A stretch of 64,000 nt of DNA. It comes from a virus. Below, one piece after another: positions 1-12,139 of the stretch. Position numbers and translations under genes: made by a program. The stretch lies in IMG/VR virus record IMGVR_UViG_3300010167_000860, positions 7,964 through 71,963 of that record. The stretch is one strand, 5' to 3'. The notes under the pieces are model-generated. The model was given only the letters and a program-made list of their open reading frames with translations, searched no databases and had not been told where the DNA came from. Positions within the stretch are counted from its first letter, which is position 1. Each line of letters begins with the position of its first letter.

Positions 1-945
1 TAAAGAAGCTGTATTACCTTCAGTTCAGTTAGATTGAACAGGTGTTACAATATTATTGATTGCTGTATTAACATCCACTACTCATTCTAATAATGTTGAG
101 TATGCACCAGGAATATCACCTGTAATATCTTCAACACTATGCTCATGTATAGGTATAGATCCAAAAGTATAACTTGTTGCTCCAGTTGCCTGTAAAATAT
201 GTCCTGCTGTTAATCCTGATACTGTATGATAACCTCCTATTAAAGGATGGTTTTCCATACCCACTCCTGGACCTCCTGAATCTAAATTAATAGTAGCAGG
301 TCCAGATTGGTTTAATGTAAAACTGCCTTTAGGAACACCTCCTTGATTTATAGTTATAGTTGGATTATATACAGTAGGTATAGTGTTTAAAGCAGTCTGT
401 AATCCTGTAATATCAGATATACCTAAGGTATGCGTATGATTACCTGCTGCTGCCTGATTAGCATTACTACCTATCTGTATAATACCTGCTAATGATGTGC
501 TTGCAGTAGGGATACCTGTTATAGAACTTCAGGATATTACTCCTCCATTCCCTGTACTGTGGTTATGGTTTAATAACCAATTATCTAAACTTACTCCTGA
601 AAAGGTCATATTTGCAGGAGCTATATTTATATTAGCAGATAATGACAAACCATTAACTGTTCTTGTCAAAGGAACAAAATCCCCTGATACACCCCCTGTT
701 ACCTGTACTCATTGTCCTCCTCCTGCTGTACCCTGTCTTCCATAAGTATTTCCATCATTAGGAGGTTCTTCAAAAGCCATTACTTCAGTACTAAGGGGCA
801 TCCATTTACCTTTCCTTCATTCTTTTCAGGTAAAAGGATCTGTATTAATATCTACTCATATATTTGCTTCACTTAATGAAGGGGCTACATTAGAAAAGAG
901 TATATTACCCTTTTCAGTAGATATTCTTGATAAAACATTATTCAT
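1..945 (-). CDS. Tail fibre / tail-spike-like structural protein (partial, runs off window start; TGA=Trp)
   Basis: ATG at 945; frame open to position 1 if TGA=W (7 in-frame TGA, 2 TGG). Fibre-type motifs EPPNDGNTYGRQ...W, ISWSSITGIP, HTHTLGISDITGL, VQSNWTEG. Contains track ORF 82..264. Confidence 0.75.
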
Positions 946-947
946 AT

Positions 948-3371
948 TTATTTCTTTATTGGTGATTTATTAATCTGTTTATTTTTAAGTCTCAACTCTT
1001 CAGCAGTTTTCTTTTTATCAAATTCAAACTTAGCTTTTTCAAGACTATGTTTATCATTCCACTCCCTTATTTTTTCTGATAGTTCTGCTTGTTTTTCAGG
1101 GTTATATGGAACTTCCTTAGGAACTTCATTAGCTTCATTATTCATAAGATTAGTTTCACTTTGTATCCCTGCAATCATAAGTTTTGTTTCATTATCTCTT
1201 ATATTATTTTCTTCCAATAATCTTAATTTTCCTTCTTCTAAGGCTGCCTGTTGTTCTAACTGTGCCTGTTGCATCTCCCTTTCTGCTTGTGCTGCCTCTT
1301 GTTGTTGTTGCATAGTTCTTGCTTCACTCTCCTGCATAGTCCTTGTAATTTCAGCAATAGAGTTTGTAGTTTTAATCTTTATAAGGTCTGAACCTGTCAT
1401 TAACTGATTTTGTACCATAGCCTGAGCTAATCCATCTAAACTTTGTATTAATTCCTGAGATTGTCTGCTATCCTGTATTACTAATCCATAATCACACTCA
1501 CAAAATTCATCCCCATCTATATCTATAATCTTATTAGTTCCATCTGATAATAAGTATTGAAATTTCTTTTTCTGTCCTCTTAATGCTGCTTTAGCTGTTT
1601 CTATAAAACATTCTAATACCCTTTTCTTGACATTATCATGTGTCATAAATAACCATTCAGTTATATGAGAACTTTGTAACACTGACCTTTCTACTCCCCC
1701 AACAGTTTCCCTGTTATCTATAGCCCCTTCTCTTTGTTTAGTTATACCTACCATAGAGGACATAGTCTCAGTTATCCATTCTAGGACATTAACATAATGC
1801 TGTATCTCATCTCCCTGTGTAGCATCTATAACCCCTGAGGATTGATTATTCATAAGTCCTGCTAATTTTCCCATAGCAGCACCCTTATTACCTTCTTTAA
1901 AACTGTCTGTTATAGCTATCCTGTTTATCTTGGCATAATAAAGCCATTTATCTACTTCCCATCCTGATGGTACAGTTGCCAAATCCATCTTAACTATCTT
2001 ACCCCAGTTAGTAGCCATAACCTTTAGCATATTATCCATAGTAACATCATACAGATAATTATACCATTTCATCATATCTACCATAGAGTAAGGCTTACTG
2101 TCATTAAGATTATATATACTTCCTACTATTCCAAAATGACACCTTGAAGGGTTTTCTAATCTGTTATACTGAACTACTCTAGGTCTCATATTAACATAAA
2201 CCTTGCCTATCTTAGTAGCTTCTCAGGCTTCCATTATATATAATATCTCTACCTCTTCTCCCACATCTTTGTTAGGGATATAGTCCTCTGGGTAAAAATT
2301 AAAGTCCTCTTCTCCAGTCATAGGGTCATAAGACTTGACTTTTTTAATTCTTCTGTAGGATTTTCAATAAAGTCTAAGTACCCTAATATTACCAAGATTA
2401 TCAGTGATATTAGAATAACTGTACATAGGGGGACCAAATAAACCCAGCCTACCTTCAACAACAACACCTTCACCATATTCTCCTCCTCAGGGATCTAATA
2501 AATTATAACTCTTTTCCTCATCATAATTAGCCTGATTATCTAAAGATGTAGAACCAAAAGGAAGTTCTGTTATATACTTTATATCACTTTCCTTTAATAC
2601 ATCATAAAAAGTATCCTGTATCCTCCCTGGGCTTCAATAATCCCATAGAAGTATCATATCTGCATCTTCTACCCTGTTTGAAAAACCTGACCTTATAACC
2701 TGTATTTTCTTAGGATTTATTCTTTCCATAGTAGGTTCTCCTCCTACTATATCACATTGATATATCTCCTCCCCACATATCATAGCATCCATTATCCCTG
2801 AATTAAATTTTAAAGCCATATCAAGTTCTTGATAATAATGCTTTAAAAGATAATTAGCTCTTATTTCCCTAAGATCTTTTCATTTATATTTGTAGTAATC
2901 CTCTATCTTAGCTAATTGTTTTTGCTGTTCCTCCTCTGCTCCTTCCTGTTCAGGATCTATTCCCTGAGTTATCCACTGTTCTAATTCCTGCATCATAAGT
3001 TCTTTTTTCTGCTCATTCATCTCACTTATAGCTTCAGGATTAGTTACTACAACCCTTGCATCAAATCTTCTACCTCACTCTTCTCCCTTAATAATATTTA
3101 ATTTTGAATTTATAATAGGATAATGCTGTATCTTGTCAGGATTAAAACTGGATTTAATCTGATTAGGATTAAGAACTAACTGTACATCATCCATATCAAG
3201 TATTCCATTAACCAAGTTATAATTGATTATCTTATTCTTAATGGATTTTCTTGTATATGAATTATGTATAAAATAATTCTTATCTGCTCAATCTATACAC
3301 TCCATCCTCCACTTCTTATTTTTACTCCTGTAAGAAAGTTTTTGAGGAGGCATTCTATTAAAGTCTTGCAT
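948..3371 (-). CDS. Portal protein, crAss-like (~807 aa; TGA=Trp)
   Basis: Track ORFs 948..2189 and 2634..2819 share one frame with ATG 3371; the junctions examined are TGA at Trp-like positions (MEA-W-EATKIG). crAss portal-like motifs QREGAIDNRETVGGVERSVLQSSHITEW. Confidence 0.85.
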
Positions 3372-3392
3372 ATTTACAATTTTAAATATCTA

Positions 3393-3400
3393 CAAAAATA
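3393..3400 (-). promoter_or_regulatory. Bacteroidetes sigma-A -7 box (TATTTTTG) upstream of portal
   Basis: Matches the TAnnTTTG consensus ~20 nt upstream of the portal ATG. Confidence 0.55.
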
Positions 3401-3571
3401 ATAAAAAAAATAATAATTCAGTCAAATATAAAATTTTCTGTTAGATTACATAATCAATTAAAATAATAAAATAGAAATTAAACTTTCCTAAATCCTTTAT
3501 TTTAAATTCAAGTATCAAATTTATTCTTTTACTTTTGTAATGAATTTAATTAATATTTTATGAAAAAAAGT

Positions 3572-3603
3572 AAAAAGAAAGGAGGGAAATTTGCCCCCTC
3601 CTT
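3572..3603 (-). terminator. Intrinsic terminator after terL
   Basis: GGAGGG/CCCTCC stem followed by a U-rich tract on the minus strand, just after the terL stop. Confidence 0.65.
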
Positions 3604-3620
3604 ATGAGAATTTTTTTACC

Positions 3621-5981
3621 CTAATCTGCTGTAATATAACTTTTGATTTTATATTTTTCATCATACTTTCTTAATTTCTCTAACGTATTATCATTCATAT
3701 TATTATTAAACCTGTCATCATAATTTTGAGTAAAGAATTTATCATTACCTAAATAGTTTTTATCATTAGCCCTATTTTCCTTTTCTCCTGTTCCTCCTCC
3801 ATAAAGTATTAATCTTTCTTCCCTAAGAAGCATTAAAGCTCCTAAAGCATCGTGCCTATCAGTGTTTAAATCATTACTAAATGCAGCTAATTCCTTTAAT
3901 AATGCCCTATATACTATTCTTCTCAGGTTAGGTATTGTTTCTTGTATTTCCTGTGCTTCTCCCTCCTCTGCATTTTTTGATGTAAGGATTTCCACTGGTT
4001 TAAGGAGAAAGTCTCTGATATGTCTTCTGTACATATTTTTGACAGGTTCTGTGGCTGTAAATCCATAGGAACTACTTCCCAATGTTTCTTTGTAAGCATG
4101 TTTATCTTTTAAATATTCTAAAGTTTTTGATAAATATCTAAGTGAGTTATATTTTTGCATATAACTGTAAAATCCCTTTTTATTATTTTCATAACAGCAT
4201 TGTGCATTATAATACATTAATAACCTTCTGGCTATTTCAAAAGTATCATCTGAAAAAGTATATCTTCCTGTATATTCTGCTACTATATCATCTGTTCATA
4301 AATCTAATACATATACAGATAATAAAGACATAGATTGTGCTGGTCCATCAATTATATCCACAGGGTCTAATCCTGCTATATACCTTCCCCAAGGTATTTC
4401 TCCTGAACTATCATTCTCAGGATGATTTTTAATATATACTGCCCCTTCAGCTTTATTATTATTCAAAGGAAATTCCTGAATAGCTTTTACATCTAATGAA
4501 GGTTCAAAAATTACCTTACTATCCCTTATAATAAGATTGCCCTGATACATTCTATTTAATATGTCAGGATTATTATCTATTTCAAATACCCTGTCATTTA
4601 AATCTGCTACAGGGTATATAGTTCCATCTCTTCTCATTATAGCTTCCTGAAGGGTGAATGCTATCTCTGCCCTTCTTTGGGTAAGCTCCATTGGATTATT
4701 AGAATTATACTTTATAAAATATCTTTCTTTTAATTCATACACCAAAGCTCCTATAACATCGGATACCCCATCTTTATTAAAAAAAGGTCTGTAATTTACA
4801 TATCCAGGAAAAAAGAAAACAGTGTTTTTTGCTCCTAAACTGCCTCTATCATATACATTAGGAATACCATAAACATTCTTAGTTTCAGGAGAATATATCA
4901 TATCTAAAGCCCCTTCAAATGAATTTCCAGGAGTTCCTCCGGTCCCTGTACAGAAGGCTGTACCAAATACTATAGCCCCTTCTTGAACATTAGGCATAGA
5001 AGTAGCAAACCACTCATTAAATTTAGGAAATTTACCAAATTCTTCTGCAAACAATAAATCATTCCTCCTCCCTCTTGTTTTTCCAGGGTCATCTGCTATA
5101 GATATACCATTTATAGCATTTTGAGGACCTCTTTTATTATTATCAGAATCTACTCATCCACATACCCAGGACATATTAGAAGGGGATTTTTGAGAACAGG
5201 TAGTAGGAAACTGTGTGGTCTTAGATAGATGATCTAACCCAAATTCAAACTTTCCTAATATACCATCTTCTCCTGATAAATACACCTTATCACTTGCAGT
5301 AACTAATCCTACCCTATTATTACTCCTTTCCTTATCTATACCTATTGTAAATAATTTAAGCAGCATTGAAGCTAGGGAGTAGGACTTGGATTTAATCCTA
5401 GAAGATATTTCAGCACCATGAGAACCATTTTCCCTTGCTTGCTCTATATAATGAAATCTTCAATAAACTCCTTCCCAACATTCTGGTAAATCATCTTTTC
5501 TAAACCCAACTTTTTTACCTGTTTTGGTTTCAATAGTTGTGTTTAATTTCATTAATAAGTAATTAAGATAAAAATACATATCTCCTGTTATTCACTCTCC
5601 ATCACTCTCCCTTACCATACCATTTCAACACCTATCTAACTCCTGCCTAAACCATTTCATATATTCAGATTTAGGAGAAGTATTAAGTTTTAGTTTAGTA
5701 TAACAACCATACTCTTTAAAATGTAAAGCAGCAGGTCTAAAGAAATCCATATTTTCGAGATAATGAGGCATAGTTAAATTAACAATTATTCTTCCAGTTT
5801 TGTCACGTGGAAGCTCACAAGCTCTTTTTCTCTTTAGAGAAATTAAATTTTGAATAAAAGGAACATTGTTGATATAACCTAAAAAATCTTCTCAACATTC
5901 TTTTGGCATACTATCTCTAAGTTCTTCAGTAATTTTAGTTTGAAATTTATTAGTAGGAATAATTTCATTTATATTTTTCAT
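3621..5981 (-). CDS. terL: Terminase large subunit (786 aa; TGA=Trp)
   Basis: Track ORFs 3621..4217, 4296..5054 and 5154..5366 share one frame with ATG 5981. Read-through restores crAss TerL motifs ELDRC-W-NGMVRESDGE-W-ITGDMYFYLNY and DL-W-TDDIVAEYTGR; Walker B-like LFAEEFG; RNase H-like YIAGLDP; ends in TAG. Confidence 0.92.
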
Positions 5982-6841
5982 AAAAATCCTCCTGCATGTT
6001 TATATTTGCCTTCAGCACTTCTCATTATACCTCTATTATCTATTGATGTTACTCTGCTTGCTTCTCTAATACTATTAAATTCCTGAATATAATTTCCGTT
6101 CATATCATATTGAGTTACTTTTATAGACTTATTATATTTGTTTTCTTGAATTTTTACTCTTCTATCTAAATCCTCCAATTGGTTTTCTCATAAGAATATA
6201 TATCCATTAGCAGTACTACAATTTTTAAAAAAATTGCAACATGCTAATATATTTATATTACACATATTTAATTCTCTTGATGCTTCATTGGCTGATCTGA
6301 AAATTTCTATCAATTTCCCATCAAGAGAAAATTGATACACTTTTTTCTTAGAATGAGCAATTTTTATTTTTTCTATAGATTCTGCACTTCTTTTAGAACC
6401 TCTATTTTTGTTTTTATCACTTAATAAAAATGATTTTATTTTTTCTATTGTTTCTTGAGTAGGTTTATATCCACATATTCCTTCTCCACCATCAGTCATA
6501 TTATAAGACATTTCATGTGTTTTATACCATGCAATAAGATATTTTTCAGCATATACAGCATGTTTTTTTGATATACTTTCTAAAACAATTTCTTGTTTTA
6601 TATTTTCCCACCCATATTTTTTTATGGCTCTATTAAACAATTTTTGATTTTTATAGCCCCTTCCATAATTTCATCTATTATTTATACCAATTGAAGTAAT
6701 GCCAACATACACTCTATTTGAAGGAGAGGTGTGTTTATATACTGTTCATTTATTATCTTCCTCTACCTCTTTAGGCAAAGTATCTAATAACTCTCTGGTT
6801 ATTTTTGTTTGGTAGGAATTTGTTTTTATTATTTCTTCCAC
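5969..6841 (-). CDS. GIY-YIG homing endonuclease with NUMOD-type DNA-binding repeats, N-terminally fused to a TerL-like leader (290 aa; TGA=Trp)
   Basis: From GTG 6841: ...K-W-TVYKHTSPSNRVYVGITS...NNR-W-NYGRGY...FNRAIKKYGW, then two VxQ(Y/F)xxxG...HTH repeats ending ANGYIFL-W and AGGFL-W-KI*. Joins track ORFs 6188..6640 and 5978..6178. Confidence 0.88.
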
Positions 6842-6934
6842 TCTTCTTTGTTATTTATTAAAATTACTTATTTTTGCCCTTAATTCATAATATTATGAAG
6901 AAATTTCTTTTTACATTAAAATATGAAAAAGAAA

Positions 6935-6971
6935 AATAAAAAGGGAGGTGGCAGCATTAACCACCTTCCCT
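6935..6971 (-). terminator. Intrinsic terminator
   Basis: GGGAGGTGG/CCACCTTCCC stem with an A-tract on + (U-tract on -). Confidence 0.6.
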
Positions 6972-7197
6972 GATTAGAAATAATCAGTATAGTTGTTACA
7001 CTTATTAGCATTGTTATAGGAATTGCTATCCTATTCTCTGCTAACCAACAAAAAGTAAACAACTTTCATATTTATTCTCCAATAATTATTGTAGAATAGT
7101 GTCTCTTTATTAAAAAGAGTTTAACAAGTATCATCACATACTTGATAAAGCTGTATAATCAGTTTTTCCTCAGGATATGATTCCTGAGGATTTTTCT

Positions 7198-7362
7198 TTA
7201 TTCCAAAAAAAATCCCATTACATAATCACACTTTTCACATTTATAAACATCCATAATTCTTTTCATTTTTATACCTTCTTTATTCATATTAGATTCTATA
7301 AAGCTAACAAGTTTTTTCTTAATATAGTTACATTTAGGACAAGGATAGTCTTGTATTTTCAT
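7198..7362 (-). CDS. Small zinc-ribbon protein (54 aa)
   Basis: MKIQDYPCPKCNY...YKCEKCDYVMGFFLE*; two CxxC pairs; below the track length cutoff. Confidence 0.6.
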   Translation of the reverse strand: MKIQDYPCPKCNYIKKKLVSFIESNMNKEGIKMKRIMDVYKCEKCDYVMGFFLE

Positions 7363-7480
7363 AACTCTTTGTTATTATTTCCTGTTAGGAATTTTGTGAG
7401 ATATATTTTATAGTACTATATGTAATGCTTGTTTACAGGAGTACTTTTTATTCCACAAAACTCCATAACAAGAAAATTAT

Positions 7481-7789
7481 TTAACATCCCTCATTACCTT
7501 CTTTATACATATCTTTAACCAAGTCATAGTTCTTTCATTTCTTATATTCACCTGATATTAGTATATCAAATAAATATTCAAATATATCAGCTTCAAGATC
7601 ATCAAATCCAGTATTTTTAAATTCCTTCAATAACTTCCTTGAGGTATCAGGATAATTAACCTGATATAATCTGAATATAAAAACATTCTTATTTGTAAAG
7701 CCTTGTCTTTCTACTCCCTTCTCAACAACTAAAGTACATAGTCCTGAGATTTTTTTGTTTATTAGGTCTAATGATTTATATATATTCAT
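7481..7789 (-). CDS. Hypothetical protein (extended through TGA 7535)
   Basis: Track ORF 7535..7789 stops at TGA; read-through adds WKNYDLVKDMYKEGNEGC to TAA 7481. Confidence 0.55.
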
Positions 7790-7945
7790 AGTTTAATATT
7801 CAAGTATTATATCTGCTAATTTTATCTTAATTCAATTAAAACACAATTCAAAAAAATTATCATCTTTTTTCATTGATTTTTCTTTTCTATCTTTTTTTCT
7901 TCTTTCTGAGTTTATCTCTAAATTATCATTTTCTTTCATAATATC

Positions 7946-8167
7946 TTATAATGTATTTATTAACTCTTGTTTTGTTCTAAATAGATTTTCTTCACGAAAA
8001 CCAGCAATAGTAAGACCATATATATGAAAACAAACTTCTGATTTTACATTTAAAAAATATAAAACTTTATCATCACTATCTAAAAAAATACCTGTAATAA
8101 TATCTTTTTTAATCCCATCTTCAGTTATACGAAATACCTCATCATATAAATTATACTTGTTTTTCAT
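7946..8167 (-). CDS. Hypothetical protein
   Basis: ORF track; resembles the short phage family pattern of 27404..27628 (F-x-I-x-E/D-E-V-F...LF-x-T-x-E-E). Confidence 0.55.
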   Translation of the reverse strand: MKNKYNLYDEVFRITEDGIKKDIITGIFLDSDDKVLYFLNVKSEVCFHIYGLTIAGFREENLFRTKQELINTL

Positions 8168-8180
8168 ACCTTATAATATT

Positions 8181-8711
8181 TTATACATTTGACAAGCCAA
8201 GATCACCTATTGTAAGTTGTGTTTTTCCCCTTACCTTAGCACTCTGTTCCTCTATATCTTTAAATATCTCCTTTTCAGCTATAGACAGTTCTACTGCTAA
8301 CTTATTACTATCTGATATAGCCTTAGTAAATTTAGCCATATTATCATCATCTAATACAAGTTCATCTAAAAAGGTATTAAGTTTATCCATCCTTCTCCTA
8401 TTCCCATCTATAAGTTTTGAAGAAGATGTTATTACCATTTTCTGATAAATATCTACACACTGTTTATATTCAGGAAAATCAAGAAATTCATTTATATCTT
8501 CTATTCCTAAAGCCTCACTTACTGTTTCTATTTTCTCATCCCAGTCAGTTATATAATTATAATCAGAGCCAGGATGAAACATAAAATACAAATAACCAAA
8601 GATAGTCATAGCCTCATCAGCATTTCTTTCATACATATCCCTGAAACATTTTATATGAAATGCTTCATCAGATATTACTAATTCATTATTTTTAAATTCT
8701 ATTAGTTTCAT
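8181..8711 (-). CDS. Conserved crAss-like hypothetical protein of the terminase neighbourhood
   Basis: 176 aa; GYLYFMFHPGSDYNYI motif recalled from crAss genes near terL; no in-frame TGA. Confidence 0.6.
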   Translation of the reverse strand: MKLIEFKNNELVISDEAFHIKCFRDMYERNADEAMTIFGYLYFMFHPGSDYNYITDWDEKIETVSEALGIEDINEFLDFPEYKQCVDIYQKMVITSSSKLIDGNRRRMDKLNTFLDELVLDDDNMAKFTKAISDSNKLAVELSIAEKEIFKDIEEQSAKVRGKTQLTIGDLGLSNV

Positions 8712-8898
8712 CTTCAGTAGTGTAATAAGGATTATCTGTCATATATAATATTACTTTATGTTTACTATTTTCTCCAACATAACATTTAGGTAGTATCTTG
8801 TAACACATCTTATTCTTTACATCATTTTCAAACTTTACAAATACCTTTGCTTCATTAGAAAACTGTTCCAAATATTTTTTAAATTCTATTAGTTTCAT
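8692..8898 (-). CDS. Hypothetical protein flanked by 21-bp direct repeats
   Basis: ORF track; repeats at 8691-8711 and 8878-8898. Confidence 0.55.
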   Translation of the reverse strand: MKLIEFKKYLEQFSNEAKVFVKFENDVKNKMCYKILPKCYVGENSKHKVILYMTDNPYYTTEDETNRI

Positions 8899-9124
8899 TC
8901 CCTGTATCTATTATTAAATAATCCCTCTTATCTTTGTAAAGTTTATTATCAAGATATATACCTCTAACATCTATTTCTTTGAATCTTTGATCTGGAACTT
9001 TATTTCCTTCTTCAGTAATTGTATGTCCATAACTTTTTTCTATGATATTTATATTAGGACATTCAGAGGCTTTTAAATGTTTAACTACTGTTTCTAATAT
9101 CTGAATTAAAATTATTCTATCCAT
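8879..9124 (-). CDS. Hypothetical protein
   Basis: ORF track; overlaps and is translationally coupled to the next gene. Confidence 0.5.
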   Translation of the reverse strand: MDRIILIQILETVVKHLKASECPNINIIEKSYGHTITEEGNKVPDQRFKEIDVRGIYLDNKLYKDKRDYLIIDTGNETNRI

Positions 9125-9155
9125 TCTATATATCTTATTTTTTATAAATCTAAAT

Positions 9156-9500
9156 CTATTTTTTGTTTTCTAACCTTTCATTCCACTTATAAAATTGTAA
9201 TACTCTACTATCCATCACCCCTTCCTCTATAAGTGTTATAGCCTCACTTTCTGTTATAGGGAATATCCTAAAGTGCAGAAATACAAAGTAGAGGTATGCT
9301 AAACTTACAGCTAAAGGAACAAACATTAAGTAAAATATAAGATTTATATCCTGATAGGAATAACCACACATTAAGGCTGATAATACTAATGAAGGAAATC
9401 CCCACAAAGTACACTTATTATAGTTAAGTTGATGTTTCCCTAATTTAAGCGCTGAAGCAATACAAAATTGCTTTATTATAAATAATCTAAATTTTGTCAT
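9156..9500 (-). CDS. Small membrane protein (two hydrophobic segments)
   Basis: LWGFPSLVLSALMCG and LIFYLMFVPLAVSLAYLYFVFL segments. Confidence 0.55.
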   Translation of the reverse strand: MTKFRLFIIKQFCIASALKLGKHQLNYNKCTLWGFPSLVLSALMCGYSYQDINLIFYLMFVPLAVSLAYLYFVFLHFRIFPITESEAITLIEEGVMDSRVLQFYKWNERLENKK

Positions 9501-9511
9501 ATTAATCTTTT

Positions 9512-9546
9512 AAAAACCCCCTGGCTATCCATCAACCAGGGGTAAA
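9512..9546 (-). terminator. Intrinsic terminator
   Basis: CCCCCTGG/CCAGGGGG 8-bp stem with an adjacent A-tract on +. Confidence 0.65.
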
Positions 9547-9574
9547 GTGTACAACGTGTTAATTTTAATGTTAA

Positions 9575-10009
9575 CTAGTTCAAAAGATGGATTTTTGAAT
9601 TTTTCTTTTTCTTATATGCCTTACCTGAAGATACCTCTTGTTGTTCTTCCATTTCAAGAATAATAAACACAATATCATTACATCTAAGGTTAAGACATTC
9701 CTTATTATCTATATCAATAGTAGGGATACTAAATGCTAATTGCTGACTATACTGCTCATCAAATCCCTGTATAGCATCTTTCCTTTGTACAGGTCTGGCG
9801 TAATTATAAAAATTTACCATAACTGTATCTCCTACATTAATTCCTCTTTGTTCTGCCCCTGATGAGGTAAACAAAACTTCCTGGTATTCCTTAAAATTAC
9901 CAGACTTTGTTGGATCTAATAATCCCCCTGTAGTATAAACTTCATCATACCTGTTTCCTGTGGTTATTATCCCATCCATTAATGGTTTTACTTTCTTTAA
10001 TACTAACAT
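9575..10009 (-). CDS. GroES-like co-chaperonin (crAss type)
   Basis: KKVKPLMDGIIT...GINVGDTVMVNF...DIVFI resembles the GroES KPLxDRV / VKVGDxV pattern. Confidence 0.6.
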   Translation of the reverse strand: MLVLKKVKPLMDGIITTGNRYDEVYTTGGLLDPTKSGNFKEYQEVLFTSSGAEQRGINVGDTVMVNFYNYARPVQRKDAIQGFDEQYSQQLAFSIPTIDIDNKECLNLRCNDIVFIILEMEEQQEVSSGKAYKKKKNSKIHLLN

Positions 10010-10068
10010 CCTTTTTTTCCTCCTTTTTTACCACCCTTTTTTACTGGGCTATTTTTTTGTCCTTTCAT
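10003..10068 (-). CDS. 21-aa Lys/Gly-rich basic peptide MKGQKNSPVKKGGKKGGKKGC
   Basis: ATG 10068 after an A-rich leader; TAG overlaps the start of the GroES-like gene. Confidence 0.5.
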   Translation of the reverse strand: MKGQKNSPVKKGGKKGGKKGC

Positions 10069-10089
10069 AATTTTGTTCTTTTAATTGTT

Positions 10090-10383
10090 TTAATCCTTTA
10101 ATATTTCAATTCCATACTCCTTACATACTTGATGTTCTACCCTACATCCTCTTGCATCCTGCCATCCTTCCATAAAATATACACAATCTGCATCTGATAT
10201 ACATTCTATTGATTTTGCAAGATATTTTACTGGCACATTTCCTTTACTTATAAAATCAGGAAATATAGTACTTATAATCTCATAACCATCCTTTAATAAT
10301 CTTTTTATAACAGGTTCTCTCTCTTCCCTAATTTCCCCTTCTGTCTTACCATTCATAGGCTGACAAATAACTACTTGCATCAT
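10090..10383 (-). CDS. DUF4406-like / nucleoside-deoxyribosyltransferase-fold protein
   Basis: ICQPMNG...ADCVYFMEGWQDARGCRVEH pattern. Confidence 0.6.
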   Translation of the reverse strand: MMQVVICQPMNGKTEGEIREEREPVIKRLLKDGYEIISTIFPDFISKGNVPVKYLAKSIECISDADCVYFMEGWQDARGCRVEHQVCKEYGIEILKD

Positions 10384-10384
10384 A

Positions 10385-10657
10385 CTACTTATACTTTATA
10401 ATATTTAACTCTCTCTTTTTCCTTAATTTCTTTAAATCTATAAAAAATCTACAAAACTTAGGAATAAAAAAATTAGTCCCAAGTTCTGCAATATTTTCTA
10501 CAGGTAATCCTTTTAATTCAGGTAATCCCTTAACTGTAACCTTCATAAATGAAAATACACTATCATATACCTTTTTTATTACCTCAGGGCTTCTATGATG
10601 CTTATTTCCCAAAGTAACAAACAAATCATTCAAAGATTTATAATTAGTCAGTTTCAT
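10385..10657 (-). CDS. HU/IHF-like DNA-binding protein (crAss type)
   Basis: Basic 90 aa; VIKKVYDSVFSFMK...TNFFIPKF resembles crAss IHF-like proteins. Confidence 0.5.
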   Translation of the reverse strand: MKLTNYKSLNDLFVTLGNKHHRSPEVIKKVYDSVFSFMKVTVKGLPELKGLPVENIAELGTNFFIPKFCRFFIDLKKLRKKRELNIIKYK

Positions 10658-11036
10658 TTATATTAAAAGCTACTAACAATGTAAATTTATTATTAGATAT
10701 ATCAGGAATAATCCTCCTGTTTAAATCCCCATTCTGTATAACACCTATACTCTTAAACAAAGATATTAAGTTATAATACCCAGCCTTTGAAGTTTCTATA
10801 CTCTCCATAACACAATTCCTTGTTTCTACAGAGAATAATAACTGTGGGATAAGTTTAGGTTCAGTAACCCCTTTAGAAATTTCATACCTCTTAGTTAATA
10901 AAACTGCTAAGGCTTCCATAGGTTTAGTTCCTAATTTTGAAATAGGTTCTAAAGGTTTTATAAACAGTAACCATTTCTTGTAAAAATCTAATAATGAACT
11001 ACAAGTTAAATTTATTGATGAATTACCTTTTACCAT
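10644..11036 (-). CDS. Hypothetical protein
   Basis: ORF track, 130 aa, within the operon. Confidence 0.55.
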   Translation of the reverse strand: MVKGNSSINLTCSSLLDFYKKWLLFIKPLEPISKLGTKPMEALAVLLTKRYEISKGVTEPKLIPQLLFSVETRNCVMESIETSKAGYYNLISLFKSIGVIQNGDLNRRIIPDISNNKFTLLVAFNINETD

Positions 11037-11038
11037 AA

Positions 11039-11353
11039 CTACTGATTATCTGTGTTAGTTTCCTCTTCCTCTTTAGGAGGATAAAGTATAGCTATTAATT
11101 CATTAGCCATAATTTTGTTAGCCTCTTCAGGAAAACATTCCTTATTAAATTCTATGTAGGAACACTGTAGTTTCAAACATTCTAATAATAATGATATTCT
11201 ACTTATTTTCCCAGCTTCCTGATAAGCCTTTTGTTTCCATAAATTAGCCTGCTCTTCCATCTGTAGTAAAGCATTCTTTAGTTGTTCATAAGACAACTTT
11301 TCATCTTTTTGTCCCATATTAATTATAGGAGCTTCATTCTTATTTTCTTCCAT
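11039..11353 (-). CDS. Hypothetical coiled-coil protein
   Basis: KLSYEQLKNALLQMEEQ helix; ORF track. Confidence 0.55.
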   Translation of the reverse strand: MEENKNEAPIINMGQKDEKLSYEQLKNALLQMEEQANLWKQKAYQEAGKISRISLLLECLKLQCSYIEFNKECFPEEANKIMANELIAILYPPKEEEETNTDNQ

Positions 11354-11364
11354 TTGTTTAAAAT

Positions 11365-11745
11365 TTATTCTATATTTATATGTAAATAATTTAACTCTTC
11401 TCTTGTATATTGAACTACATAATATTCACTTATCATTTCTTCAATTTCATTAGTTATACTGTCCCTATCATTCTTCTTATTTAAAAATTCCTGGTATTCT
11501 TTATACTCTTTGAGATTTTTAAATACTCTGGGAGGTTGTAAAGCCAGTCATTCAAAAATACTTCCCTCACTAATATTAGTACTTAAACAATGTTCACAAT
11601 AAGTATTGGGACATCCTTTAACAGTACTGTTTAAAGATAATATAGATAAAGACAGACATCTATTACATCATAAGACAGGTTCATCATTATACTCAGTATT
11701 TATCTGTGATGGACTGTATTCTTGCAAACATTCTTCAATTTCCAT
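11365..11745 (-). CDS. Zinc-binding protein, crAss-type (126 aa; TGA=Trp; absent from track)
   Basis: MEIEECLQ...YNDEPVL-W-CNRCLSLSI...YCEHCLSTNISEGSIFE-W-L; two CxxC pairs; two in-frame TGA. Confidence 0.75.
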
Positions 11746-11746
11746 A

Positions 11747-12139
11747 TTAAGTTCAGTTAATATTATTCAAATCCATCTTTACAGCAAATTTAGGAATTAT
11801 AGACTGCCTTGCTAATTCCTCAACAATCTTATAATCCTTATCCAAAGTTTCCTTCAATATCCATCTAACATTTCCTGTCATTTGATACTTAACTTTAACT
11901 GCTAACTCTGAAATTTCAAGGGTATAAATCTCTATTATCTCAGGAGGAGTAAATAATGGTCTTGGAGTACCATAAATAAGGTATCTATTAAGTACCTTTA
12001 AATCTTTAGTGCTTAAACTATTACTCTTACAGCAGTTCTCTATATTTTCCACAGGCACAGGTCTTTTCTTTTCTTCCTGTTTCCTTATTTTCTCATCAAT
12101 AACCTCTTCCATTGTAGGTTTTACTTTCTCTTTTTTCAT
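11747..12139 (-). CDS. Hypothetical protein (TGA read-through to TAA 11747)
   Basis: Track ORF ends at TGA 11753; read-through gives ...NINWT* with TAA-T-ATG coupling to the next gene. Confidence 0.6.

Follow-up and report, generated by a model that had tools for sequence, protein, structure and literature searches.

A candidate start-replacement cassette with a GIY-YIG homing endonuclease in the terL gene of a crAss-like phage

To our knowledge, homing endonuclease genes (HEGs) in essential genes are thought to survive only by way of a self-splicing intron or an intein, or by sitting between genes. Free-standing phage endonucleases, such as those of the Seg or Mob type, sit between genes, and intronless homing is well known. 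Here we examine the large terminase subunit gene (terL) of a Crassvirales phage in a 64,000-nucleotide (nt) stretch of DNA (the window), which is part of the 105.8-kb virus record IMGVR_UViG_3300010167_000860 of IMG/VR. In the window a GIY-YIG/NUMOD1 homing endonuclease is fused in frame to a relic of the terL 5′ end (U, for upstream), and its stop codon overlaps the start of a complete terL that has its own, diverged copy of the same segment (D, for downstream). We put the probability that the architecture and history of this locus are those of a start-replacement cassette in terL at roughly 0.8.

The closest parallel comes from fungal mitochondria. In the mORF "gene hybrids" of Allomyces macrogynus (atp6), Glomus (atp6, atp9, cox2 and nad3), Rhizopus (atp9) and Mortierella (cox2), an endonuclease open reading frame (ORF) has been inserted in phase together with a foreign carboxy-terminal gene copy, and the native C-terminus is left as a relic that is closer to the sister species (summarised in PMC3630166). 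The arrangement we describe appears similar in that an endonuclease and a foreign gene end stand in phase, the native end remains as a relic closer to sister taxa, and no splicing is called for. In the mitochondrial hybrids it is the 3′ end that is replaced, with the native C-terminus lying downstream and often unexpressed, whereas here it is the 5′ end, the setting is a phage, and the relic would supply the start and leader of the endonuclease.

Several phage systems share part of this anatomy. Like the endonuclease in the window, T4 Seg proteins combine GIY-YIG with NUMOD/helix-turn-helix modules, and like its fused kin in the sister lineage described below they occur sporadically beside a conserved essential gene and have co-inherited flanks, but Seg-type genes are intergenic and have their own starts, while the endonuclease here is fused to a relic of the host gene and carries a replacement start. 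The endonuclease gp18 of crAss001 belongs to the same enzyme family (31% identical), has the same neighbour gene and also overlaps the terL start with its stop, in that case by 29 nt; unlike the window gene it has its own start, no terL relic and no duplication, and it falls outside the clade of fused enzymes. In T4, mobA at gene 60 is considered to move with a 50-nt translational bypass element, which leaves the gene in working order while disrupting the target, and the resemblance lies in a HEG moving with an extra segment that keeps its host gene functional, although the segment here would be a replacement coding start and not a bypass element. Finally, the ICP1 terminase gene has an intron and an adjacent T5orf172 HEG that take part in "collaborative homing", with splicing established by RNA-seq and RT-PCR (PMC10448857). 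A short N-terminal piece of terL lies apart from the gene body with a HEG beside it in both cases, but the downstream exon of ICP1 has no second copy of the N-terminus, whereas the downstream part here is a complete gene with its own start. Our limited full-text literature search found no phage description of the architecture reported here.

Endonuclease fused to a terL relic

Residues 1–29 of the endonuclease align without gaps to residues 4–32 of TerL, with 18 of the 29 identical (E=1e-7), and a TerL N-terminal profile built from ~120 crAss-like phages matches both copies (U 1.3e-8, D 5e-13) at a motif that is conserved across all crAss-like TerLs. This similarity and the profile match identify U as a genuine terL 5′ fragment and not a chance resemblance, in agreement with an earlier reading of the locus from sequence alone (the sequence-only reading), which had noted a duplicated and diverged segment of ~29 amino acids (aa) and an endonuclease stop overlapping the new TerL start. 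That overlap is also present, with the TAA at 5969–5971 lying 10 nt past the terL ATG at 5981 (Table 1). At the DNA level U and D are identical at 52 of 87 bases and different at 35, and 10 of the 18 conserved residues are encoded by different codons. When random substitution was simulated neutrally to the same DNA divergence, 8.1 ± 1.7 residues were retained and none of the 20,000 runs reached the 18 observed, so U and D diverged mostly under selection as working TerL N-termini. The pattern of divergence is that expected of alleles from two phages and is unlike that of a redundant local duplicate.

The endonuclease itself is intact as judged from its domains and conserved positions. The catalytic domain scores 23.4 bits against the GIY-YIG model PF01541, narrowly above the cutoff of 22.6. 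NUMOD1 (PF07453) matches two stretches (5e-17), the second lying further upstream of the stretch at residues 240–270, and the I-HmuI NUMOD-like domain (PF22083) is matched at 5e-09. Every position that at least 85% of 96 homologs conserve is kept or conservatively changed, and this covers the two Tyr motifs as well as the Arg-Trp, Glu and Asn positions. A sequence search of PDB with the endonuclease gave zero matches at E<=0.01.

The fused ORF begins with a GTG three codons downstream of a TAA, with no ATG present. In ~97% of the 96 homologs nothing aligns to residues 1 to ~16 of the endonuclease, and the homologs' own starts lie 3–10 residues ahead of the GIY motif. No alternative start codon was found in the ORF ahead of the catalytic domain, and an active enzyme must therefore carry the terL-derived leader. 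The proposal that the endonuclease took over the terL start thus appears sound in structural terms.

The late genes of this phage are legible only when TGA is read as Trp (code 4). A table 11 reading was rejected, as four TGA codons then break the endonuclease ORF and six break terL. The TGA at endonuclease codon 57 aligns with a Trp conserved in 98% of homologs, which supports the recoding, and since the whole 105.8-kb genome has no transfer RNA genes, the recoding is not explained by a phage-borne suppressor. Over window positions 1–12000, codons of this kind are present in the late or structural genes, namely a tail-fibre-like ORF, portal, terL and the endonuclease, and a block of small genes at 7946–11353 has zero. 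The region of the locus is ~25% GC, and unselected frames there close quickly.

Placement of the phage in Crassvirales comes from TerL, portal and capsid homology. TerL was identified by tblastn to annotated Crassvirales large terminases (41–48% identity over 95% of its length), with the best GenBank match at 48% to the uncultured phage cr108_1 (Steigviridae) and 41–42% to crAss001; there was no Pfam match. A large protein database (5.8 billion proteins) holds 5413 TerL homologs, with a best identity of 56%. The identical locus sequence occurs in three termite-gut DNA metagenome runs, which may be its source, and no RNA run was listed among those carrying the phage. Logan contigs assembled independently from termite-gut runs, possibly the source sample itself, show the same arrangement with 0 differences. 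Contigs of higher depth in the termite-gut runs (2.7 kb and 10.4 kb) match only short stretches, 6529–6546 and 6614–6635, which are part of the catalytic-domain region, and the phage contigs break at 6716/6725 in two runs. This suggests interference with the assembly by related endonuclease genes that other genomes in these samples carry.

Ahead of U, a terminator-like hairpin found by consensus scan putatively closes the preceding transcription unit, before the inherited leader region of terL. A weak U6atac match at 6932–7051 (E=0.038) overlaps this hairpin and was rejected as spurious. Between this leader region and the preceding genes there is a small, zinc-ribbon-like ORF of 54 aa (7198–7362, minus strand) that has two CxxC pairs.

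Table 1. Positions of the terL locus features in the window.
Feature	Position	Strand	Details and basis
Fused ORF, terL relic plus GIY-YIG/NUMOD1 homing endonuclease	5969..6841	-	290 aa, code 4, 4 in-frame TGA=Trp
GIY-YIG catalytic domain, residues 31-114	6500..6751	-	Pfam PF01541; conserved positions compared with 96 homologs
Best-scoring NUMOD1/I-HmuI-like DNA-binding module, residues 240-270	6032..6124	-	PF07453, PF22083
terL, large terminase subunit	3621..5981	-	786 aa, 6 TGA=Trp, ATG start; homology to Crassvirales TerL
Overlap of endonuclease stop (TAA) with terL ATG	5969..5981	-	13 nt
U, putative resident terL 5′ relic	6755..6841	-	GTG + 28 codons; similarity to TerL residues 4-32, TerL N-terminal profile
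D, putative replacement terL 5′ end	5886..5981	-	ATG + 31 codons, in frame with TerL body; TerL N-terminal profile
Inferred inserted cassette, endonuclease body plus replacement terL 5′ end	5886..6754	-	869 nt, all coding; boundaries by homology to the L007/L017 occupied/empty pair
Terminator-like hairpin	6946..6966	-	~100 nt upstream of U; consensus scan only

Occupied and empty sites in a sister lineage

The three closest homologs of the endonuclease by identity (P0122–P0124, 40–43%) belong to a different crAss-like lineage, with a TerL only 41% identical to that of the window, and they show the same fused architecture in three contigs (L006, L007 and L008). In L006 and L007 an N-terminal fragment of TerL is fused in frame to the endonuclease and is followed by a complete TerL with a diverged N-terminal copy, the terL start overlapping the endonuclease stop by 23 nt and 20 nt, respectively. 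The end of the fragment in the TerL alignment is the window's junction to within one codon. With their terL-derived leaders trimmed, the four fused endonucleases group as a single clade (support 0.967) in a set of 98 homologs, and across the two lineages the endonuclease is 45% identical.

The sister lineage is well sampled in IMG/VR, and no endonuclease is found within 3 kb upstream of terL in loci L012–L022 and L031. At least 10 relatives (67–79% TerL identity) therefore serve as natural empty sites to set against the three occupied loci. The U copy of L007 is identical to the empty allele L017 at 93 of 108 nt (86%) and 32 of 38 aa, including a rare 12-residue insertion that the two have in common and that is limited to few alleles. 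Their identity ends at the junction, where L007 goes on into the endonuclease and L017 into the TerL body, and it returns right after D (68 of 75 nt). The D copy of L007 is only 64% identical to the L017 5′ end, with 30 gapped columns, and 79% identical to L019 from a sibling clade. The relic being closer to the empty allele than the working copy is the mORF-hybrid pattern as a 5′ mirror image; for the window the same relationship is proposed from its architecture, clade and selection signature, as an analogy of mechanism and not as homology.

L006 lies in a different background, where identity in nt to the empty allele L016 is 78% for U and 52% for D. The closest relative of the L006 D is the D copy of L007 (76%), compared with 67% or less for any empty allele tested, and the U copies of the two loci are of different types. 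Since U matches the empty alleles while the D types match across backgrounds, U is recipient sequence and D moves together with the endonuclease. The occupied allele thus reads as an empty allele plus an in-frame insert made up of the endonuclease body and a foreign terL 5′ end.

These comparisons bear on several expectations of the sequence-only reading. Insertion into terL near codon 30 is upheld by the same junction, within one codon, in a second lineage and by HEG-less relatives with an upstream-type N-terminus on the TerL body. Relatives lacking the endonuclease were expected to join U directly to the body, and this holds in the sister lineage, although no empty site was found for the window's own lineage. 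Of the contrary outcomes, an upstream similarity due to chance is contradicted by the profile match, and empty alleles that match the downstream copy by the sister lineage, where L017 and L016 match U. A 5′ end recoded against cleavage was also part of that reading: the replacement is supported in the sister lineage by D copies of a common type across backgrounds, and the recoding finds less support, D resembling natural alleles of a sibling clade more than a specially recoded sequence.

TerL can do without U, as L008 shows. The L008 leader has lost ~29 codons in frame, leaving the first three and last six residues ahead of the GIY motif, while its upstream context is that of L007 and its D is intact. 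This deletion removes the Crassvirales-wide TerL motif from U, so TerL there cannot depend on U and must start at D. Across L006–L008, D is free of indels whereas U is variable and has indels, and at every occupied locus D outscores U against the TerL profile. At each of the four occupied loci D retains its ATG, its frame and the conserved N-terminal motif of TerL. Immediately past the junction on the downstream side, the sequence encoding the INNVPF-containing motif is near invariant in every allele, and the 48 nt upstream of the junction differ strongly between the recipient type and the D type. In the HEG-less alleles L015, L017 and L022 an insertion of 12–17 residues lies inside the otherwise conserved TerL N-terminal motif, showing that this segment tolerates indels, and such tolerance may be the reason it can be swapped.

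Outside this clade the relatives of the endonuclease are ordinary free-standing HEGs scattered through crAss-like genomes at many unrelated sites. Some stand directly upstream of terL with an overlapping stop and start, no relic and their own start codon, as in crAss001. An IMG/VR scan with an alignment of the fused endonucleases returned 80 ordinary members and no further fused case, together with two loci that have a free-standing HEG upstream of terL. The second GIY-YIG gene of the phage itself is of the ordinary free-standing or intron-borne kind, with its own start and without the terL-type arrangement. The annotated start of crAss001 gp18 (MH675552.1; L004:2418-3020, "endonuclease") seems too far downstream; the open frame reaches back another 10 codons to an ATG, and this extension completes the domain with its first GIY strand. 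In a 98-kb crAss-like contig (L046:459-4214) the gene order is TerL, HEG, portal, HEG, with two different GIY-YIG-family genes on either side of portal and gene boundaries that abut or overlap. Many crAss-like TerLs of ~1100–1330 aa (e.g. P0002, P0017–P0049) hold intein/LAGLIDADG domains (PF14528, PF14890, PF05204, PF05203) at other positions than the window insert. terL is a general hot spot for selfish elements in Crassvirales, at several positions.

Alternative explanations

The best surviving alternative to a start-replacement cassette, which we consider unlikely, is a one-off local accident that is now immobile and inherited vertically. The phage's own terL 5′ end would have undergone partial tandem duplication, caused either by an endonuclease gene that stood free ahead of terL, like that of crAss001, or by the insertion of this gene, and U and D would have diverged in place. 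A number of points weigh against the cassette, several of them in favour of such an accident. Within the window, the nearest known relative of U is D and vice versa, with lineage-specific residues in common and the rare QTKIT motif in both, which would make the D donor a relative within the same broad lineage, and the foreign origin of D is argued there by analogy with the sister lineage and from the selection signature. U begins with GTG and not ATG, so that translation of the endonuclease is not assured, and the GTG may reflect decay. No close terL relatives were found in IMG/VR, and the best window-lineage relative in JGI metagenomes (L043, 73%) begins at residue 219 and so lacks the terL 5′ end. 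No HEG-less variant or joint was seen in contigs of the metagenomes carrying the phage, and neither these, IMG/VR, the JGI metagenomes nor the protein database gave an empty or alternative allele for the window lineage. No D-specific "immunity" substitutions could be identified near the junction. Lastly, RNA structure in the full 869-nt insert is in modest excess (z = -2.55; of 20 shuffles, 1 did as well), and a local hairpin accounts for much of it.

What speaks against a local accident is that the protein-level constraint between U and D, unmatched in all 20,000 neutral runs, is unexpected for a redundant relic, and that the endonuclease is still intact. In the sister lineage, moreover, U is of the recipient type and D of a common foreign type in two different backgrounds, and the common junction and monophyletic endonucleases span lineages whose TerLs and endonucleases are 41% and 45% identical.

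The major capsid gene of this phage (Pfam Crass_capsid; L133:1-4101, G000:C1:93400-97500, outside the window, minus strand) is in four pieces, residues ~17–198, 190–244, 239–291 and 292–504, separated by three inserts. A GIY-YIG gene of 298 aa occupies one of them and an HNH/NUMOD4 gene of 179 aa another, and one of ~300 nt has no ORF; the inserts have non-coding flanks. All three begin after a common short motif, and every piece ends in (L/I)-A-A-stop, like the true C-terminus. Inserts 1 and 3 finish alike, in a conserved 3′ stretch that has a hairpin and closes with a G, and the ORF-less insert is strongly structured (-74 kcal/mol, z = -4.66). The downstream capsid exons have no start codon and no repeat of the upstream exon. 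Rfam found nothing at the capsid inserts even at E<=10. They are probably group I-like introns.

A self-splicing intron with an in-frame endonuclease ORF could likewise be imagined at terL, where U would be exon 1, the 869-nt insert would be spliced out and D would be an intron-borne leftover. The insert lies exactly between two codons, U plus the body gives an intact recipient-type TerL, the phage is intron-rich, the insert has the excess of structure noted above, and the ICP1 terminase offers a precedent with its short N-terminal exon, spliced intron and adjacent HEG (PMC10448857). Searches of Rfam with the window locus, L006, L007 and L008 (E up to 1–10) gave no intron family, a result of low power that we do not count as evidence since the probable capsid introns are also missed. 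Even so, we regard an intron as very improbable. The terL insert has no non-coding bases, the endonuclease ORF and D overlapping each other, and the 3′-end signature of the capsid introns is missing. Over its 3′ 305 nt it is no more structured than shuffled sequence (z = +1.15), compared with z = -4.66 for the ORF-less capsid insert. An intron has no need of a copy of exon 1, yet what would be the downstream "exon" forms a complete gene that has an ATG and repeats the N-terminus, in a copy that keeps its frame and TerL motif at all four occupied loci and beats U on the TerL profile, and in L008 U has lost the conserved motif by in-frame deletion. The earlier view that the element is neither an intron nor an intein is thus favoured on anatomy, with an all-coding insert, a TAA, no Hint domain and none of the phage's intron signature. 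An intein was excluded, as the ORF ends in TAA before the TerL body and has no Hint/intein Pfam domain, and a fractured gene, whose halves are bordered by split-intein halves around a free-standing HEG (PMC2677866), was rejected, there being no intein domains, a complete gene downstream and a redundant upstream piece.

Least probable of all is a domesticated packaging accessory, in which the nuclease works with terminase and the TerL-derived leader is an interaction peptide: HNH proteins next to terL do work with terminase in some cos phages, and the gene adjoins terL in the late TGA-recoded block with possibly coupled translation, but it is sporadic among close relatives, most of which lack such a gene, its leader is variable, has indels and is nearly deleted in L008, and it has a classical homing endonuclease domain architecture with relatives at many unrelated sites.

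Proposed mechanism and significance

We propose that the insert is a mobile "start-replacement" cassette, in which a GIY-YIG/NUMOD1 gene without its own start codon is followed by ~30 codons from the 5′ end of a foreign terL, their ATG falling within the last codons of the endonuclease. The cassette would sit in frame between terL codons 32 and 33 (window numbering), so that the endonuclease is driven and begun by what the resident terL left there, namely its leader, its start codon and its first 29 codons (U). Translation of TerL would then start at the cassette's own ATG in D, and splicing would be unnecessary. The overlapping stop and start suggest coupling, and TerL translation is probably coupled to that of the endonuclease. 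Expression would come from the late terL promoter, with the four TGA=Trp codons tying translation of the endonuclease to the late, recoded phase.

The cassette would spread in the manner of free-standing homing endonucleases, the enzyme cutting a HEG-less terL near the junction and repair copying the cassette from the occupied genome, and it may still be mobile in the window lineage. The enzyme probably recognises the conserved sequence just downstream of the junction. I-TevI-like enzymes are a model for binding on one side and cutting on another, and by analogy the endonuclease could bind the conserved side and cut the variable side, in which case a divergent D would shield occupied genomes. 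With terL on both flanks, the cassette would have homology arms in any crAss-like phage regardless of which gene lies upstream of terL.

A plausible origin is that a HEG upstream of terL was copied into a cut terL allele of a phage without homology further upstream. The left end would have been joined illegitimately and in frame inside terL at codon ~30, giving a unit flanked by terL on both sides, and homing would thereafter require terL homology only. Homing by terL homology alone would explain why one clade, one junction and a recipient-type U are found in lineages as far apart as families.

In the sister lineage the mosaic boundaries are sharp and D is co-inherited with the endonuclease. 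We are slightly inclined to regard the cassette as an undescribed class of phage mobile element, an intron-less and intein-less homing cassette in the 5′ end of an essential gene that takes the promoter and start of the gene and brings a replacement start, which restores the gene and, as a divergent allele, protects the occupied genome, and that has moved between Crassvirales lineages as distant as families. It would represent a third solution for a HEG in an essential gene of a phage, in-frame insertion with a borrowed host-gene start and a spare start brought for the host gene. As the 5′ mirror image of the mitochondrial mORF gene hybrids, the locus follows a known principle and is not a new category.

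For annotation, the extra N-terminal similarity and the fused ORF might be mistaken for an intron, a frameshift or a split terminase, and standard gene callers break both genes under the TGA=Trp recoding. The sister lineage supplies natural pairs of occupied and empty alleles. terL is a standard marker for Crassvirales phylogeny, yet its first ~30 codons can be foreign, and HEGs can drive short, sharp allele swaps inside conserved phage genes.

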